A stretch of 26,889 bases of DNA from a virus. Lineage: Duplodnaviria > Heunggongvirae > Uroviricota > Caudoviricetes. Positions 7,806 to 22,691 of this stretch are shown here, in pieces; the stretch's first letter is position 1; each line of letters opens with the position of its first letter. The notes under the pieces were generated by a model that made no database searches, had not been told where the DNA came from, and was given only the letters and a program-made list of their open reading frames with translations. The stretch lies in IMG/VR virus record IMGVR_UViG_2537562020_000004; one strand, 5' to 3'. The position numbers and the translations under genes were made by a program.

Positions 7806-10028
7806 TTGGCTGTTCAATTCGCTTATCCGTGGAACGTCCCACGGTCGGCAATCTCCAGCCCATACCTTACTTATGAGCAACAGCATCGCCGCGACCGTAT
7901 GTTCGCGGCTTTGCTGCATGCAAAAAAGGGGCTTTCTCTCCAGCCCGACTGCGTGCGGTTAGATGTTTATCGCACTGCTGCGGTGCTGGAACAAAATCAG
8001 GGTAGTCAACGAGCCAATGCATTTTTAATCAGCTTCTGCAAAAAGGCATTGCCGCGTCTTGAACTGGTCGCAAAAAAATCCGAATGCGCTGGTATCAACA
8101 GCAAGGTATCAACCGCTGTTTTTGGAAGTCATTTTGATACTCAGCAAATGCAATATCTGTCGTCACGCATGGTTAATATGGTCGCCCGATATAACCGTCT
8201 CCCGGACATGTCGCGCGCTGATGTTGACCTGTTGGCCGCTGATATTGCTAATTTCATTCGTGGTGAACTTGCCAACATTAATGACCACGGATTCGGCGAG
8301 CTTAAAACGCTGTACACCTGGTATATTCGTGCTGGCTTTATTTCCCTCCAATTCAACGTTATCCCACCACATTGGGAGCGGGTTGAAAAAAAATATGTCG
8401 GTGCGGATGAAATCGCACCGGCTATCGCCAAAATGTTTAACGATGGGGGGTGGCGCGGTCGTTTGCGCCGTGTAGCAGCTACGTGGCGCGAACACCTGCA
8501 AATTGCAGTCGGCAACGTCAGTAAGAAAAAAAACACTTACGCGAGTAAAAACTGCGTGACTGACTGGCGTGAACAAAAGCGCCGCACTCGTGAATTTCTC
8601 AAAGGTCTGGATCTCGAAGACGAAGACGGCAACCGTATCAGCCTAATTGAAAAATATGATGGCTCAGTTGCTAACCCTGCGATTCGCCGCTGTGAGCTCA
8701 TGACCCGCATTCGTGGGTTTGAAAACATCTGTAATGAGCTCGGTTATGTCGGTGAGTTTTACACTCTAACCGCGCCGTCAAAATATCACGCCACGACTAA
8801 AGCCGGTTACCGTAACAGCAAATGGAGCGGTGCCAGCCCGGCTGACACGCAAAACTATCTAACCGGTATCTGGGCGCGTATCCGTGCCAAACTACATCGG
8901 GAAGATGTCCGTATTTTCGGTATTCGTGTCGCCGAGCCCCATCACGACGGCACTCCACACTGGCACATGCTGATGTTCATGCTGCCGGAAGATGTTGAAT
9001 ATGTTCGCTCCATCGTCCGTAAATACGCATGGAAAGAAGACCGCCACGAACTGAAAAGCGATAAATCCCAAAAAGCACGTTTCCACGCGGAGTCCATTGA
9101 CCCGGAGAAAGGCAGCGCAACCGGCTATGTTGCTAAATACATTTCAAAAAATATCGACGGTTATGCTCTCGATGGTGAAACCGATGATGAAAGCGGTGAG
9201 CTGCTGAAAGAGACAGCCCCCGCCGTTTCAGCATGGGCTGCGCGCTGGCACATCCGTCAGTTTCAGTTTATTGGTGGTGCGCCGGTGACGGTTTACCGTG
9301 AGTTGCGTCGCCTCGCTGATACCGAAACCGCGCACGGTCTGAGCGTTGAGTTTGCCGCCGTCCATGATGCCGCCGACGCTGGTGACTGGGCTGGTTATGT
9401 TAATGCTCAGGGTGGGCCGTTTGTCCGTCGCGATGATTTACAGGTGCGCACACTGTATGAACCGCGTACCGAGCTTAATCAGTACGGTGAGGAAACGGTA
9501 TGTATTAAGGGGGTCTACGATTCCTCCATAGGTGCAGGAAGCCCGATTTTAACCCGGCTCACTCAGTGGAAGATTGTTCCGAAGCGTGCTGTTGATTTGG
9601 CCGTTGACCTTCAGGACGGCAAAGCCGTCCCTCGGAGTTCTGTCAATAACTGTACGGGAAGCGAAAGCGATCCACCGATACTGGATTTAACAAAACCACT
9701 GAGTCGGCGTGAAAGACGAGAATTGACCAACCGACTCAGGAAGCAAAAGCCAGCAGCACGGCGAAAATTCATCCACGGAACGGATGAGCAAAACGCAGCT
9801 ATAGCTAAAACTATCGATGAGATACATCTGACAACCGGCATTAATATCAGCCGGGGCGAAGCCCTGCACCTGATGGCCGGTGGTAAAAGTTGTTTTGATG
9901 GTAAATGGCTACGCGGAACGGCCAAAGGAGAAATATTTTCCGCAGCACCATCGCATGAGGCTAAAGCTCGGAAAATCCTTAATCGTGTTGCGGCGATGGC
10001 TGAAGCATCAAAACCAATACATGAGTAA
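7806..10028 (+). CDS. A: Replication initiation endonuclease A (rolling-circle HUH nuclease); TTG start
   Basis: 740 aa. HUH motif in EPHHDGTPHWHMLMF and catalytic Tyr region TGYVAKYISKNIDGYAL, as in P2 gpA. TTG 7806 is preceded by GGGGGG. The N-terminus MAV...YPWNVPR parallels P2 gpA. Confidence 0.9.
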   Translation: MAVQFAYPWNVPRSAISSPYLTYEQQHRRDRMFAALLHAKKGLSLQPDCVRLDVYRTAAVLEQNQGSQRANAFLISFCKKALPRLELVAKKSECAGINSKVSTAVFGSHFDTQQMQYLSSRMVNMVARYNRLPDMSRADVDLLAADIANFIRGELANINDHGFGELKTLYTWYIRAGFISLQFNVIPPHWERVEKKYVGADEIAPAIAKMFNDGGWRGRLRRVAATWREHLQIAVGNVSKKKNTYASKNCVTDWREQKRRTREFLKGLDLEDEDGNRISLIEKYDGSVANPAIRRCELMTRIRGFENICNELGYVGEFYTLTAPSKYHATTKAGYRNSKWSGASPADTQNYLTGIWARIRAKLHREDVRIFGIRVAEPHHDGTPHWHMLMFMLPEDVEYVRSIVRKYAWKEDRHELKSDKSQKARFHAESIDPEKGSATGYVAKYISKNIDGYALDGETDDESGELLKETAPAVSAWAARWHIRQFQFIGGAPVTVYRELRRLADTETAHGLSVEFAAVHDAADAGDWAGYVNAQGGPFVRRDDLQVRTLYEPRTELNQYGEETVCIKGVYDSSIGAGSPILTRLTQWKIVPKRAVDLAVDLQDGKAVPRSSVNNCTGSESDPPILDLTKPLSRRERRELTNRLRKQKPAARRKFIHGTDEQNAAIAKTIDEIHLTTGINISRGEALHLMAGGKSCFDGKWLRGTAKGEIFSAAPSHEAKARKILNRVAAMAEASKPIHE

Positions 10029-11460: not shown

Positions 11461-11620
11461 ATGCCATTTTTCCGCGAATTTCCCGTTTTTTAGTCGTGCA
11501 TGCATCAGGTGCATGGTTTTGCATGCGTCAGTCTTGCCCGTTCTGTCCGTGCGCCGCCAGAGCTAGCGCGGATCCAGAGTTGTCATGCAACTGCATTAAA
11601 ACCGCCCCATAAAGCGGGCA

Positions 11621-11639
11621 GGCGTGGCGGGGAAAGCAT
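11621..11639. other. cos: cos: 19-nt cohesive-end sequence of the 186 type
   Basis: GGCGTGGCGGGGAAAGCAT equals my recollection of the 186 cohesive end (P2 is GGCGAGGCGGGGAAAGCAC). The location between the early region and Q is as expected. Confidence 0.8.
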
Positions 11640-11858
11640 TGCGCGCCAGCAGTGATGCGTAATAATAAAAATTATCCTCTGAGCGCGTCGTGATGGCGCT
11701 GTCGTGGTCGCTGCTGGTTCGTTGGTGGTCGAGTGTGTTCGTGCGCGTGAGACGCATCTGATGCGTGATGGTGGTGTGCATGGAAAAGCCACCAGGAGCA
11801 GCGGCTTTACAGGAGTGGCAGGATTCAAACTGCTAATTATGTTTCTACTATGATTAAA

Positions 11859-12863
11859 CTAATTTACATGTATGTAGAGTTCACCGTCGCCAGACCAATC
11901 GGGACACTCTAAAACAAGCCCAAACTGCTTGAATATTTCATCAATGATTATTGTTATCTCCCGAAAATCACCAAAACCTGTAATGTGCTGGTCATTAAAC
12001 TTCCCATAAAGATTCTGAAAAGCAATGCCTAATTCTGATAATTGATATCTTATCTTTGAGTTGGATAGTGTAAGGGATAGCTTTGGATCGTATTCTTTAA
12101 TATTGATGTTTAGAGAATGGACATAACCCATCGCATAAGCATAAGAGTTGATGATTAGCCTGATACGTTTTTTTACTTCAAGATACATGTCATTCAGAGA
12201 AATATTACCGTACTTATAACCCCAGATGAGTTTTTCAATCTCGTCAGATACTTCATTTACAACAGTGTCAAGATTCTCTAAAAATAAATCGACAGTTTCT
12301 TGAGGGGCAGACCCCGAAGACATGTAATTAGCGAGATATTCAGACCATGCACGCGTGGCTGAGATAAGAAGCGCGCTACCATACTCGTTGACTGTAAAGT
12401 TTTGGGCTAAGCATGTTAGTAAGTTTTTTTCATGTACGTGCACTAATTCATGGTGAATGCGATGGATGACTGCGAGGTATCCTTCTTCTTTCAGTTTTAA
12501 GAAGCTACCATCATTGAAAAGCTCAACAAAAAAATCAATCGATAGCACAAGGGTATATTCTTCATATAGCCCATCATTGCCAATTTTTGTTACTAACTGC
12601 CCGACGGCTGCGCCCTGTTTGCTATTGGTAAATGAACTAGGGGATTTGTGTTGGTAAGAGGATGTTACCTTTTGAAGAGCTTCACTGAAGTTATAGGAAA
12701 CAATCACGCATTTTAATTTGGAGATATCAAGATTGAGATTCTTTGTTAAAGCTCGGATAGCTTCTAGTGTGAAATTACCGATATTATTTGCTTCTTGCTC
12801 AGTAGCGAAACCTTCGAGGGTTATTTTAAAATCAGTTTCCAAAATATTAATCTCCGCGCCCAT
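11859..12863 (-). CDS. Orphan cargo protein with a zincin-type HExxH motif (putative metallopeptidase-like effector)
   Basis: 334 aa in AT-rich DNA. HELVH at residues 138-142 (nt 12438-12452, within IHRIHHELVHVHE), with Glu candidates 18 and 33 residues downstream. No signal peptide or TM. It sits between cos and Q. Confidence 0.75.
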   Translation of the reverse strand: MGAEINILETDFKITLEGFATEQEANNIGNFTLEAIRALTKNLNLDISKLKCVIVSYNFSEALQKVTSSYQHKSPSSFTNSKQGAAVGQLVTKIGNDGLYEEYTLVLSIDFFVELFNDGSFLKLKEEGYLAVIHRIHHELVHVHEKNLLTCLAQNFTVNEYGSALLISATRAWSEYLANYMSSGSAPQETVDLFLENLDTVVNEVSDEIEKLIWGYKYGNISLNDMYLEVKKRIRLIINSYAYAMGYVHSLNINIKEYDPKLSLTLSNSKIRYQLSELGIAFQNLYGKFNDQHITGFGDFREITIIIDEIFKQFGLVLECPDWSGDGELYIHVN

Positions 12864-12881
12864 TGTTTTGATATTCGATGC

Positions 12882-12910
12882 ACTATAGCTTTCGCAGATT
12901 GCATCTTCAA
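12882..12910 (-). promoter_or_regulatory. Candidate sigma-70 promoter for the HExxH cargo gene
   Basis: The minus strand reads TTGAAG (12910-12905), a 17-nt spacer, then TATAGT (12887-12882). It is ~19 nt upstream of ATG 12863. Confidence 0.4.
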
Positions 12911-12940
12911 TAATGAGCGCAGAGATTGTGGCGGCCTAAG

Positions 12941-13987
12941 TTATTCTGGGTTGTCGAGGGTGTACTCTTTGAATCTGATGACCTCCATGCCGAGCCAGTC
13001 ATTTACCTCCCTGAACCTGTCCTGTAGCGGCGACAGCTCGTTGCGCACAAATACCTTTGCCACCTTCTCAACATCACCGAGTGAACCGATATTCTCGGGC
13101 TTGCCGCCCATGAGCTGGAACGGTACGCGGTGCGCGTCCATCAGATCGGCGGCACTGGCCTTCTTGATGTTGAAAAAGTCATCCTTTGTGGCGACCTCGC
13201 TCAGTGGCACGATTTTGATGCCGTCCGGTTTTCCGCCGGGAGCGTAGAAAAACAGGTTCTTAAAGTTGCCGAGCCCTTTTGAGTTGCGCATCGCCTCGCG
13301 CAGCGATTCGACGTCGGTCGCGCTCTGCGCCGGGTCAGTCACATACATGATGTAGCCTGCGTGCGCGCCGTTCTGATAATACTTGCGGCGGAACAGCGTC
13401 GCGGATTCATTCAGCCAAGCGGAATTAAGCGCGCTGAGATATTCCGGCAGACCGTAAATCTCCTGATTAATGTCGGGCTCCAGCAGGTGAAACACGGTAT
13501 CAGGCGCGAACTCGTGCGGCTGGGGGAAGTTTTCCACAAACCAGAAAATCGAATCGTCGACTCCGCGTCGGGTGTATTTGGCTGGCGAGGCCAGCAGTTT
13601 GATTAACTGGCCGGTGACGCTGTGGCGCTGCTCAAGAAAGGCGTTACCGAACACCAGATAATCGAGCGCAAAGCGGCTGAAATCCTGACGGGATAACAAC
13701 GGGTGCGGAATGTAGGTGCTCGCGAGCACGTTACGCTTAACATAAATTGGCGAGCTGTGATGCACGGCAGAGCGCAGGCTCTTTGCCAGCCCTGAGAAGC
13801 TGACCGGCGGCTCGTACCATTTGCCGTTACTGATGCACTCGACGTAATCCAGAATGTCGCGCTTATCGAGTACCGGCACCGGCTCGCCGAAGGTGAACGC
13901 TGTCGTTTTTGGCGGTGCGCTGGCGGTCAGTTGTTGTGGTTTGCTGGCCTTTTGTGCGTTGGCTTTACGGGATTTTTGTTTACCCAT
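12941..13987 (-). CDS. Q: Portal protein (gpQ)
   Basis: 348 aa. Size, position and orientation match P2 gpQ. It is coupled to P (1-nt gap). Confidence 0.9.
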   Translation of the reverse strand: MGKQKSRKANAQKASKPQQLTASAPPKTTAFTFGEPVPVLDKRDILDYVECISNGKWYEPPVSFSGLAKSLRSAVHHSSPIYVKRNVLASTYIPHPLLSRQDFSRFALDYLVFGNAFLEQRHSVTGQLIKLLASPAKYTRRGVDDSIFWFVENFPQPHEFAPDTVFHLLEPDINQEIYGLPEYLSALNSAWLNESATLFRRKYYQNGAHAGYIMYVTDPAQSATDVESLREAMRNSKGLGNFKNLFFYAPGGKPDGIKIVPLSEVATKDDFFNIKKASAADLMDAHRVPFQLMGGKPENIGSLGDVEKVAKVFVRNELSPLQDRFREVNDWLGMEVIRFKEYTLDNPE

Positions 13988-13988
13988 T

Positions 13989-15758
13989 TTAGTTGAACTC
14001 CAGAATAGATTTAGGCTGCATGCCGCTACCGGCAGAAAGCGGTTCGTTTAACAGGGCGTGCATGGTCGCCCATGCGATATCGGCGTGGCTGGCTTCCTCG
14101 GTGCGGCTGGCCTCATAGGTGGCGCAGCGCCCGCTGCTGGTCATGGTTTTGCGGATGGACATAAACGACTGCGTGACGTCGGTTGCTCCGGCGTCGTACT
14201 CCAGACAGCCACGGCGAATGGTGTCTTTCGCCTTGAGTACCATTGCGGTTTTCATTTCAGGTGTGTAACGGATGCCGCGTGCCGCCGGGTAAAATGAGCG
14301 CACCAGCTGGAACACGCCGAGACCGAGGCCGGTTGCGTCAATGCCGATGTATTCGACGTTGTATTTCTCGGTCAGCTTGCGGATGCCCTCTGCCTGTGCT
14401 GCAAAATCCATGCCCTTCCACTGGTGGCGCTCCAGCATGCGGAACTTGCCACCAGAGACCACCGGCGGCGCGAGCACGACGCACCCGGCACTGTCGCCGG
14501 TGTGTGACGGGTCGTAGCCAATCCAGACAGGACGAGAGCCGAACGGATGGTCGGCGAACGGGGCAAAGTCCTCCCATTCCTCCATCACATCGACCATGCA
14601 GCGCTGCAGCTCCTCGAACGGGAATACCGACGCTTTATCGTCGACAAACTCGCACATAAACAGGTTCTTAAAGTCCTCATCACTGTTTTCGCGTTTGAGC
14701 TGGTCGAGGTCGAACAGGGTGCAGCCACCCGCAAGGGCGTCCTCAATGGTGACAATCTGCCGCCACTGGCCATCGTCGCAGAGCTGGCCACCGGCGAGCG
14801 CGCTGTGACTGATGTCGATTTCGATGCGGTCGGCAATCCGGCTGCGCCCCTTGTTGAACAGCTCGCCAGACCAGAAGGGGTAAGCGCCGTGCGCCAGCGT
14901 GGAAGGTGTCGAAAAATAGGTCGAGCGCAGGTGCTTTTGCGAGGCCATGCCCGAGGCGACTTTGCGCAGTTTCTGAAAATTCGGGATCCAGAATATTTCA
15001 TCGACATACAGATCGCCGTTATGGCTCTGCGCGGTGTTGGAATTGGTACCGAGAAAAATCAGTTTTGCGCCGTTGTTACCGATGACAATCGGGTCGCCAG
15101 TCAGGTCAACGTCGACCAGTCGCGCAAACTGGATGATGTATTCGCGGAACACGTAAGCCTGCGTTTTACTGGCTGATAAAAATATCTGGTTATGGCCGGT
15201 TTTGAGTGCGCGCAGCAGTGCCTCGCGGGAGAAATAGAATGTCGCGCCAATCTGGCGGGATTTGAGAATGTCACGAATACGGTGCTCCAGTCCTGCGCGG
15301 TACCACTGCAACTGGTACTCGAAAGACTGGTCGAAAAATAATTCCTCTAGTTTATCGATAGCCTCGTCGCTGAAAAAATTCTTTTTCGGCTTTTTGCGCT
15401 CCCCTTTGTTGCGGTTGGCGACGTTGGGGTTAAGGTCGGCTTCGTTGCCGGTCTGGCTGTAGCGGTTGACTCGCGCCAACCGTTCAATCTGCCGTCCGAG
15501 CAGGTCAATCTCTTTGAAATCACCCCCTGTCTTTTGCGGCTTGGCGATGAGCTGAATCAGCCTGGCCTCAAGGCTGCTTTCAACGCGGGAAATCGGCGCG
15601 ATGCCGTCCCAGCCGTCGCGCTGCTTCCAGCTCTGCACGGTCGGGCGCTTGACCTGCAGCATTTCGGCAATCTGTGGCACGGAAAAACCCTGCCAGTAAA
15701 GCAGCGATGCCTGCCGTCGCGGGTCATGCAACAAGGTTGTATCGGTGGAAATGGTCAT
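13989..15758 (-). CDS. P: Terminase large (ATPase) subunit (gpP)
   Basis: 589 aa (P2 gpP ~590). N-terminal HTH-like region and nuclease/ATPase body. Divergent from O as in P2. Confidence 0.9.
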   Translation of the reverse strand: MTISTDTTLLHDPRRQASLLYWQGFSVPQIAEMLQVKRPTVQSWKQRDGWDGIAPISRVESSLEARLIQLIAKPQKTGGDFKEIDLLGRQIERLARVNRYSQTGNEADLNPNVANRNKGERKKPKKNFFSDEAIDKLEELFFDQSFEYQLQWYRAGLEHRIRDILKSRQIGATFYFSREALLRALKTGHNQIFLSASKTQAYVFREYIIQFARLVDVDLTGDPIVIGNNGAKLIFLGTNSNTAQSHNGDLYVDEIFWIPNFQKLRKVASGMASQKHLRSTYFSTPSTLAHGAYPFWSGELFNKGRSRIADRIEIDISHSALAGGQLCDDGQWRQIVTIEDALAGGCTLFDLDQLKRENSDEDFKNLFMCEFVDDKASVFPFEELQRCMVDVMEEWEDFAPFADHPFGSRPVWIGYDPSHTGDSAGCVVLAPPVVSGGKFRMLERHQWKGMDFAAQAEGIRKLTEKYNVEYIGIDATGLGLGVFQLVRSFYPAARGIRYTPEMKTAMVLKAKDTIRRGCLEYDAGATDVTQSFMSIRKTMTSSGRCATYEASRTEEASHADIAWATMHALLNEPLSAGSGMQPKSILEFN

Positions 15759-21815: not shown

Positions 21816-22691
21816 CTAGCCTCGTAAATATCGTTTAGTAAATTTCGTGTTTGGTCTGGATGATAGGATTTGTCTTTCTATTTCACTATCACAGTCTATA
21901 TAGTCTAGTGTATTAGCTTCTATAAGTTTGTTCACGTCAATATTTTTTGCATCGATTATGTTGGCATTTCTAAGGTTTGCATTGGTGTATTCCACTTTAT
22001 CCAAATCACACTCTCTGAGTACGCAACTTTTCATTTCCGCATTGGAAAAATCCCCACCATATAAATAGCAGCCTTCAAAAATAACACCGTTTAACTTTGA
22101 ATCCTGAGCTTTAATATTTTTTATTTTACACTTTATAAATTTTACGTTTTTCATTTTGCTCTTGCTAATATTTAATGCCTGGATTGTACATCCAGTGAAA
22201 GAACAGTCTCTTATGTTAGATTTTTCCATATTTAACCCAGATAGTTCTGAGGTTTTAAAGTGTAAGTATTTAATGGTAAAAAGGTCACCCAACTCCATTC
22301 TGGGTATGTCTATATTGAAGACACCTTTATTGTTGAGCTGTCTTATTATTTTTATTTTTTGTATTTTCAAATCAACATTAACGTGCTTAGCTAAGTTTCC
22401 CAAATCCTCAAGAAGTTCATTAATCGTTTCTTTGTTTTGTCTTCTGTATTCAAAGTAATAAAGGATGACACCTAATACAAAAAAATCCAAAATGGATGAA
22501 TTTGCATTTATTAGGAACCCAGACAGGAATGAATCATTGTAATTACCATAGTGTATAGAGGCAAGTGTTACGCCAAATGCATATAAAATAAAAATAATAA
22601 ACACGTGCTTCATTTTGCATAAGGATTGTATTATTGGTTTTATGGCATCAATTTTGTTCATTGCTGCAGCAGCGAAAGATTTAAAAGTCAT
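21816..22691 (-). CDS. Membrane-anchored pentapeptide-repeat protein (cargo at the S-V junction)
   Basis: 291 aa, very AT-rich. Two hydrophobic helices (~res 29-46 and 55-80), a charged linker, then ~20 consecutive pentapeptide repeats (res ~141-250: SNIRD CSFTG CTIQA LNISK ... ANLRN ANIID). Confidence 0.8.
   Translation of the reverse strand: MTFKSFAAAAMNKIDAIKPIIQSLCKMKHVFIIFILYAFGVTLASIHYGNYNDSFLSGFLINANSSILDFFVLGVILYYFEYRRQNKETINELLEDLGNLAKHVNVDLKIQKIKIIRQLNNKGVFNIDIPRMELGDLFTIKYLHFKTSELSGLNMEKSNIRDCSFTGCTIQALNISKSKMKNVKFIKCKIKNIKAQDSKLNGVIFEGCYLYGGDFSNAEMKSCVLRECDLDKVEYTNANLRNANIIDAKNIDVNKLIEANTLDYIDCDSEIERQILSSRPNTKFTKRYLRG

Follow-up and report, generated by a model that had tools for sequence, protein, structure and literature searches.

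A zincin-like cargo gene between the portal gene and cos of a 186/P2-like prophage: a large family of stand-alone metallopeptidase-like proteins with a plausible role in phage exclusion

The cargo gene between the portal gene and cos

The window analysed here is the whole 26,889-nucleotide (nt) stretch of the viral record IMGVR_UViG_2537562020_000004, and the subject of this study is a single gene for a zincin-like protein that lies between the portal gene and the cohesive-end site (cos) of a 186/P2-like prophage. According to the RefSeq annotation of a 100%-identical genome, the prophage is integrated beside yfiB/dgcN. The zincin open reading frame (ORF) occupies positions 11859-12863 of the minus strand, stop codon included. 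It is preceded on the same strand by the terminase gene gpP (13989-15758) and then, immediately upstream and across a 77-nt spacer, by the portal gene gpQ (W in phage 186; 12941-13987). On the other side lies the cos site GGCGTGGCGGGGAAAGCA (plus strand, 11621-11638), which is exactly identical to the cos of 186 and gave 0 matches in 100 shuffles. Homology to 186 spans positions 11621 to ~11808 of the window (nt 1 to ~190 of 186, including the late terminator tW) and picks up again at 12941, at the portal stop codon; therefore ~1.13 kb substitutes for 8 bp of 186. The insert, delimited at 11809-12940 by this alignment and by the profile of guanine-plus-cytosine (GC) content, is thus bounded exactly by the portal stop codon on one side and by tW on the other, and lies 188 bp from cos.

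The GC content of the insert is 0.379 (37.9%) and that of the ORF is 0.376 (GC3 0.364), whereas the flanking portal and terminase genes have values of 0.556 (GC3 0.705) and 0.571, respectively. A first-pass annotation of the same DNA had described a one-gene, low-GC cargo between cos and the portal gene, and the ORF, the composition and the 186 junctions all agree with this description. Its estimate of one-third GC was too low, the true value being nearer 38%, whereas the flanks are indeed above one half. The insert is best explained as a single-gene 'moron' gained by horizontal transfer.

The ORF had been read as 334 amino acids (aa) on the strand of gpQ and gpP, which is correct for translation from the ATG at 12863; this ATG has no Shine-Dalgarno sequence. 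A GGAG motif (12855-12852) is located 9 nt upstream of an in-frame TTG codon (12842-12840), the two together spanning 12840-12855 of the minus strand. Both are kept in all eight aligned upstream regions, although the region from a divergent Yersinia phage bears no other resemblance to the rest. The majority of homologs start at the TTG position, as does the RefSeq entry, a 327-aa hypothetical protein. Judged by these signals, the true start is more likely TTG 12842, giving 327 aa, than the ATG.

A promoter scan identified a putative sigma-70-like promoter, TTGAAG-N17-TATAGT, at 12882-12910 of the minus strand (-35 hexamer at 12910-12905, -10 hexamer at 12887-12882). Seven contexts, with proteins at 79-99% identity, have exactly the same two hexamers. 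The suggestive support for this promoter comes from conservation and not from the rarity of the match, which agrees with the consensus at 9 of 12 positions and is weighed below; the promoter noted in the first pass is therefore present and conserved, but not unusual as a match. A transcription start near 12875 would give a leader of ~33 nt to the GGAG/TTG signals. Downstream of the gene, alignment, folding and a terminator scan agree on a homolog of the 186 late-operon terminator tW (11785-11808, minus strand; annotated in 186 at nt 164-187), which consists of a 9-bp hairpin followed by UUUUCC. The scan detected no terminator between the portal and zincin genes. Since the zincin gene lies upstream of tW with no terminator after the portal gene, it should, by analogy with the known 186/P2 organisation, be co-transcribed with the late P-Q operon. 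The DNA upstream of the terminase gene contains no strict Ogr box (TGT-N12-ACA). Given the fixed site of the zincin gene, 77 nt past the portal stop and upstream of tW and cos, both routes of transcription are possible: we infer from the conserved hexamers that it would be expressed in the lysogen from its own sigma-70 promoter, and read-through of the late operon would add to this.

The zincin-like family and its active site

The HELVH motif was located at residues 138-142 (12438-12452, minus strand), as the first pass had claimed, within a predicted helix spanning residues 126-148. A second block, WSEYLAN (residues 173-179; 12327-12347, minus strand, with the E175 codon at 12339-12341), falls in a predicted helix at residues 160-185. 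Across 79 family members aligned down to 16-25% identity, only five residues are invariant: H138, E139, H142, E175 and G246; HELVH was also invariant in a smaller alignment of 31 sequences. Near-invariant positions include W173 (92%), Y/F176 (99%), A178 (96%) and also S182. Among 122 full-length representatives, HExxH plus [W/F/Y]xE[Y/F/H] 33-41 residues downstream is intact in 115, and HExxH itself is lost in only ~3. Two glutamates, at 18 and 33 residues past the motif, had been suggested as third metal ligands. E160 (+18) varies across the alignments and was rejected because it is not conserved, whereas E175 (+33) is, judged from sequence and secondary structure, the sole further invariant residue of metal-binding type. 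In the proposed active site, H138 and H142 of HExxH and E175 of the next helix would bind the metal, and E139 would serve as catalytic base.

The AlphaFold2 model of the protein (pLDDT 90.6, pTM 0.89) has the order beta-sheet, backing helix, HExxH helix and Glu helix, followed by a C-terminal helical bundle. In this predicted structure HExxH lies on an alpha-helix, the glutamate lies on the following helix, and a mixed beta-sheet together with both helices forms a zincin fold, as in gluzincins. The zincin interpretation is thus well supported at the motif and fold levels, the latter by modelling. The protein is of a soluble type (pI 5.0, ~37 kDa); with a maximal KD19 hydropathy of 1.19 and an acidic N-terminus, no transmembrane (TM) segment or signal peptide is apparent, which confirms the first-pass view. 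Taken together, these features identify with high confidence a functional, cytoplasmic, gluzincin-type metallopeptidase-like protein of a previously undescribed family, for which zinc binding and peptidase activity are predicted from the conserved residues.

Database comparisons point to a remote relationship with known zincins. The sole database-family match of the protein is PHROG 11743, a full-length match (E=2.5e-157) to a family of unknown function. Searches of Pfam, NCBIfam and PADLOC with the window protein returned no family, and Pfam and PADLOC searches with all 79 members likewise returned none, with scattered single weak matches only in PADLOC. The absence of PADLOC families for the protein bears out the first-pass remark that it resembles neither Old, Tin nor other P2-hotspot systems; the same result means that the suggested PADLOC check for a known defence system came out negative. 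Sequence and profile searches of the Protein Data Bank (PDB) gave noise only, and Foldseek comparison of the model with the PDB and BFVD returned nothing at E<=0.001. A sub-profile of the two active-site helices gave non-significant zincin matches in the PDB that covered the HExxH helix only, including 9urd and 4l7a at E=0.15-0.72. As to the structure-based check proposed in the first pass, the model places E175, the candidate third ligand, on the helix after HExxH, and the Foldseek comparison yielded no significant match. Peptidase_Mx1 (PF15890) and the SusCD-associated zinc metallohydrolases were considered as a possible parent family and rejected, since only 2 of the 79 members match, at E=0.0025, which is below the gathering threshold.

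The protein had been described as an orphan, which proved wrong. A word-indexed search identified 78 clusters in Enterobacterales, Shewanella and Psychromonas, and an exhaustive profile search extended the family to 355 or more representative clusters, spread over several phyla; E is below 1e-10 for 127 of these, and almost every member is a single-domain protein of 305-340 aa. Locus searches added Vibrio, Pseudoalteromonas, Colwellia, Gilliamella and Bacillus, as well as metagenome-assembled genomes (MAGs) from Campylobacterota and Acidobacteriota. Distant copies are present on plasmids of Paenibacillus, Brevibacillus, Pseudomonas and Bradyrhizobium.

Distribution in P2-like phages and other mobile elements

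Among the 186-like prophages of E. coli, Salmonella, Citrobacter, Klebsiella and Pectobacterium, the spacing from the portal stop codon to the zincin gene is always 77 nt, and cos lies ~225 bp past the gene in 12 related viral contigs. In a second P2-like lineage, whose portal is ~35% identical, the order is portal, ogr, zincin gene (51-58% identical) and then gpA. Overall, the family gene is portal-proximal in all 14 viral contigs and in both P2-like lineages. The first pass had called this side of cos unusual and had proposed to tabulate what occupies the cos-Q interval. For cargo in general the remark holds, since only one of 38 related 186-like phage records, vB_EcoM-613R3, has anything between portal and cos and the slot is empty in the other 37; for the zincin family, however, this position is the rule. 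From cos to gpA the cargo varies among phages, while the zincin gene keeps its place. This configuration defines a distinct cargo site of P2/186-like phages, from the portal stop to tW, that is held by one gene family while the gpA-side hotspot turns over. On the gpA side of cos, a Pectobacterium prophage with the zincin gene (locus L033, 7378-10362) carries a three-gene conflict-type system of AAA_23, MC5 and CTD9.

Of 5,426 complete E. coli genomes, the insert was detected in 25, a P2-family portal in 1,189 and a 186-type portal (>=90% identity) in 67. The Salmonella ortholog is very common in prophages. At three loci (L040, L041 and L043; gene at 8001-9002, portal at 6877-7920), portal and terminase match those of the window at 99% identity and the zincin gene matches its counterpart at 88-91%, suggesting that alleles have been exchanged independently of the flanking late genes.

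Outside P2-like phages, the family occurs in a filamentous prophage and in a variety of chromosomal islands. An integrated CTX-like filamentous prophage with Rep_trans, RstB and Zot carries a 42%-identical homolog (locus L049, 8001-8972) as its terminal cargo, directly after zot and before an integrase. The slot after zot is where CTX phage carries its toxin genes. In a Colwellia island (L021, 1587-9802), a TIR-domain protein (PDC-S35/PycTIR-like) lies directly upstream of the homolog, and the island also encodes a RecD-like helicase (PDC-S68/S53-like) and Shedu SduA (E=1e-152). A Psychromonas island combines the homolog with HsdR, an Xre/ParS antitoxin, a nuclease and VspR, and an island from Alteromonadaceae combines it with an integrase, a DpdF-like protein and a helicase. 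Other contexts include YafO toxin and Tlde1 in Kosakonia and Hcp/DUF4225 in Serratia. In the integrase-bounded islands of Enterobacter and Serratia, the homolog adjoins a resolvase. An all-versus-all comparison of 266 neighbouring ORFs revealed no conserved partner gene (antitoxin or immunity), apart from the resolvase common to these two islands.

Some arrangements at these loci are of separate interest. The Enterobacter and Serratia resolvases (L008, 7119-7685; L011, 7045-7614) are divergently oriented resolvase/invertase genes of ~190 aa, 300-390 bp upstream of the homolog; they are 72% identical to each other, and the resolvase-homolog pair may be a small mobile or invertible unit. At L016 (5727-9734), the homolog (8354-9343) lies between a 644-aa DpdF-like ORF and a 108-aa ORF matching part of the former at 70% identity, an arrangement that suggests insertion with partial duplication of the target gene. 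PADLOC matches to AbiO/Nhi (E=7e-185 and 5e-175) lie within 7 kb of a homolog at one of the loci L016-L019 and L021-L025, without assignment to a particular locus.

Two distant relatives, P0137 (597 aa) and P0203 (591 aa), are fusions of an N-terminal DUF2971 domain with the whole zincin module. Their DUF2971 domain matches the PADLOC candidate PDC-S31 over its full length (E=3e-38). The zincin ligands are retained in P0203 (HHELAH, WDEY). DUF2971 is an ADP-ribosyltransferase-like domain (PMC12522546), and the validated abortive-infection system Aristaios consists of DUF2971 (PMC11381338).

The window also contains other candidate cargo. A gene for a 291-aa pentapeptide-repeat protein in RefSeq (21816-22691, minus strand; GC 0.316) is located between a virion-morphogenesis gene and the baseplate gene V, on the strand opposite to its neighbours, and resembles a second low-GC moron of the same prophage. 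A hypothetical gene between yfiB and the prophage integrase (2547-3356, plus strand; GC 0.319) and a DUF2511 gene between the integrase and the CI repressor (4536-4874, minus strand) may be prophage-end cargo. A 61-aa 'hypothetical protein' in RefSeq and in the vB_EcoM-613R3 record (11596-11781, minus strand) covers the conserved cos-tW region and is probably a spurious call.

Proposed role, alternatives and comparison with known systems

The gpA-gpQ interval of P2-like prophages is a published defence hotspot (Rousset 2022; Vassallo 2022; PMC9122126, PMC9519451, PMC13586616), and the first pass was right to invoke it, because the hotspot has been defined as the whole gpA-gpQ interval (PMC9122126) and the zincin gene falls inside. 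The gene also shares the other properties of hotspot cargo, being variably present and of foreign composition. We propose that it encodes a stand-alone effector of phage exclusion or abortive infection that follows the logic of Lit, a reading to which we give a probability of about one half. The protein would be a latent protease residing in a prophage or island, and upon infection by a competing phage it would cleave an essential host or phage protein. A defence role is plausible in view of the gpA-gpQ hotspot location, the mobility of the lone gene, the defence-island neighbours and the DUF2971 fusion.

Several observations weigh against this proposal. Defence neighbours are clear in only ~3-4 of ~15 independent non-P2 contexts, a raw count that has no background rate, and several of these contexts are uninformative. 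The PADLOC matches to RTasSbcB, RTasRmuC and RT among the neighbours were discarded as housekeeping genes (SbcB, RmuC) or group II intron look-alikes. One of the two fusions, P0137, carries H138R and E175A, which inactivate the protease site; therefore the zincin module is not always catalytic. No PADLOC model matches the window protein, and we found no published phenotype for any member of the zincin family; a literature search on zincin, HExxH or metallopeptidase anti-phage systems and on the accession returned nothing relevant to the protein. Position within the late transcription unit would equally suit a protease that benefits the phage. As to the promoter, chance alone would give 3.7 +/- 1.7 matches at 9 of 12 positions in this region and 5 were found, which means that such a match is not unusually rare. 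Of the 77 intergenic positions, 20 are variable and none of these falls within the hexamers, for which the hypergeometric P=0.019 is generous because the compared sequences are related.

The protein is probably already represented in a published catalogue. The window protein was not among the constructs tested in PMC9122126. WP_001622301, listed as 'hypothetical' in the Rousset catalogue, is probably the window protein under an earlier accession; the neighbours of WP_001622301 in the catalogue are those flanking the zincin gene in strain 222. The 'Peptidase + TM' construct pFR104 tested by Rousset was considered as a possible match and rejected, as it encodes an unrelated 161-aa ImmA-type protein. 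P2 hotspots already hold many 'hypothetical' candidates, and the zincin gene is one more, though well characterised. It is nevertheless an above-average candidate, as it belongs to a new large zincin family, occupies a fixed and unusual portal-side slot within the late operon, and has relatives fused to the domain of a validated abortive-infection system.

The best-surviving alternative, which we consider unlikely, is that the gene encodes an accessory metalloprotease outside defence, acting in lysogenic conversion or stress, in the cleavage of a repressor or antitoxin as in ImmA/IrrE, or as a competition toxin. Such a role would fit the toxin-antitoxin and type VI items at some loci (YafO and Tlde1 in Kosakonia, Hcp/DUF4225 in Serratia) and the copy in the toxin-gene slot of the filamentous prophage, and much mobile-element cargo is not defence. 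However, the protein has no signal peptide or secretion-associated domain, no conserved helix-turn-helix (HTH), antitoxin or immunity partner, and no match to Peptidase_M78 or another family, whereas the DUF2971 fusion and the island neighbours favour defence.

It is improbable that the protein is a lytic protease of benefit to the phage itself, made mainly by late P-Q read-through and serving counter-defence, by degradation of host immune proteins, or host remodelling. The arrangement of the locus is what this explanation would predict, given that the gene shares the strand of the late genes, begins 77 nt past the end of the portal gene without an intervening terminator, and precedes tW. The persistence of its position in two P2-like lineages with portals ~35% identical, and its carriage by a filamentous prophage, are also in agreement. 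Conversely, family members reside in chromosomal islands that lack phage genes, beside Shedu, TIR and restriction genes, and the zincin gene has a conserved promoter of its own. It is also dispensable, being absent from 37 of 38 related phage records, and late expression would be badly timed for counter-defence.

Still less probable is a non-peptidase with a zincin-like scaffold, for example a metal-dependent hydrolase of another kind or a module for sensing or regulation. The invariance of exactly HExxH and one downstream glutamate in 79 distant members is the signature of a gluzincin peptidase, and HExxH is missing from only ~3 of 122 representatives. Finally, a chance ORF or a decaying remnant with no function, to which an annotation that never goes beyond 'hypothetical protein' might point, is effectively refuted by full-length homologs in many genera, purifying selection (dN/dS 0.1-0.3) among prophage-borne orthologs, the confident structure model and a Salmonella ortholog found in ~2,000 blocks of the sequence collection with its frame intact in each one checked.

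We therefore return to a stand-alone, Lit-like protease effector as the preferred reading. A bolder extension of it is tentative: the window protein would be the founding prophage-borne representative of numerous stand-alone immune effectors, a zincin family that spans several phyla and resembles Lit in action but has evolved independently. Its C-terminal helical domain would sense infection, and P2-like phages would provide a new cargo slot within the late operon, on the portal side of cos. If a Lit-like role is correct, the gene would be a tractable single-gene model, carried by E. coli and Salmonella prophages, of how infection is sensed by a protease. If the gene is not a defence gene, it still encodes an uncharacterised metalloprotease, one carried very frequently by Salmonella prophages.

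Among the gluzincins of clan MA(E), the M1 aminopeptidases, M4 thermolysin, M9 collagenase and M30 lugdulysin give no match at the sequence level, even with family profiles. The spacing from the second histidine to the glutamate is 33 residues here and 36-38 in most of the family, in contrast to 18-19 in M1 and M4, and, unlike the compared gluzincins, the window protein is small, stand-alone, cytoplasmic and carried by mobile elements. The ImmA/IrrE peptidases (M78), which include PD-lambda-2B, CapP and the pFR104 protein, are similar in having HExxH and in occurring in the P2 hotspot or next to defence operons (PMC9519451; PMC9122126 supplement). They are, however, domains of ~160 aa with an HTH or other partner, whereas the window protein has 327-334 aa and is partnerless. 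Membership of the M78 family was rejected, as none of the 79 members matches it and no neighbour is conserved across loci. Old, Tin and other gpA-gpQ cargo are likewise low-GC, variably present and cos-proximal in P2-like prophages, but they sit on the gpA side, whereas the zincin gene is on the portal side, inside the late transcription unit. The tie to Aristaios and PDC-S31 consists of a domain fusion in two distant relatives and not of homology, the window protein itself being without DUF2971.

The closest functional parallel is Lit, the 'cell death peptidase' (Peptidase_U49) of the e14 prophage. Lit is an abortive-infection effector that cleaves EF-Tu once T4 late proteins appear. Like Lit, the window protein is the product of a single prophage-borne gene, is cytoplasmic, has ~300 aa and carries an HExxH zincin motif, and by this analogy its proposed action would be the same. 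In contrast, its third-ligand block and C-terminal domain are unlike those of Lit. Homology to Lit was considered and rejected, as there is no Peptidase_U49 match at E<=10, and an hhalign comparison of the family profile with e14 Lit gave a probability of 16% over 19 columns around HExxH. To our knowledge, abortive infection by a lone zincin protease is known essentially from Lit alone; if the present family acts in a similar manner, this strategy would be widespread, with 355 or more clusters in Gammaproteobacteria, Campylobacterota, Acidobacteriota and Firmicutes.

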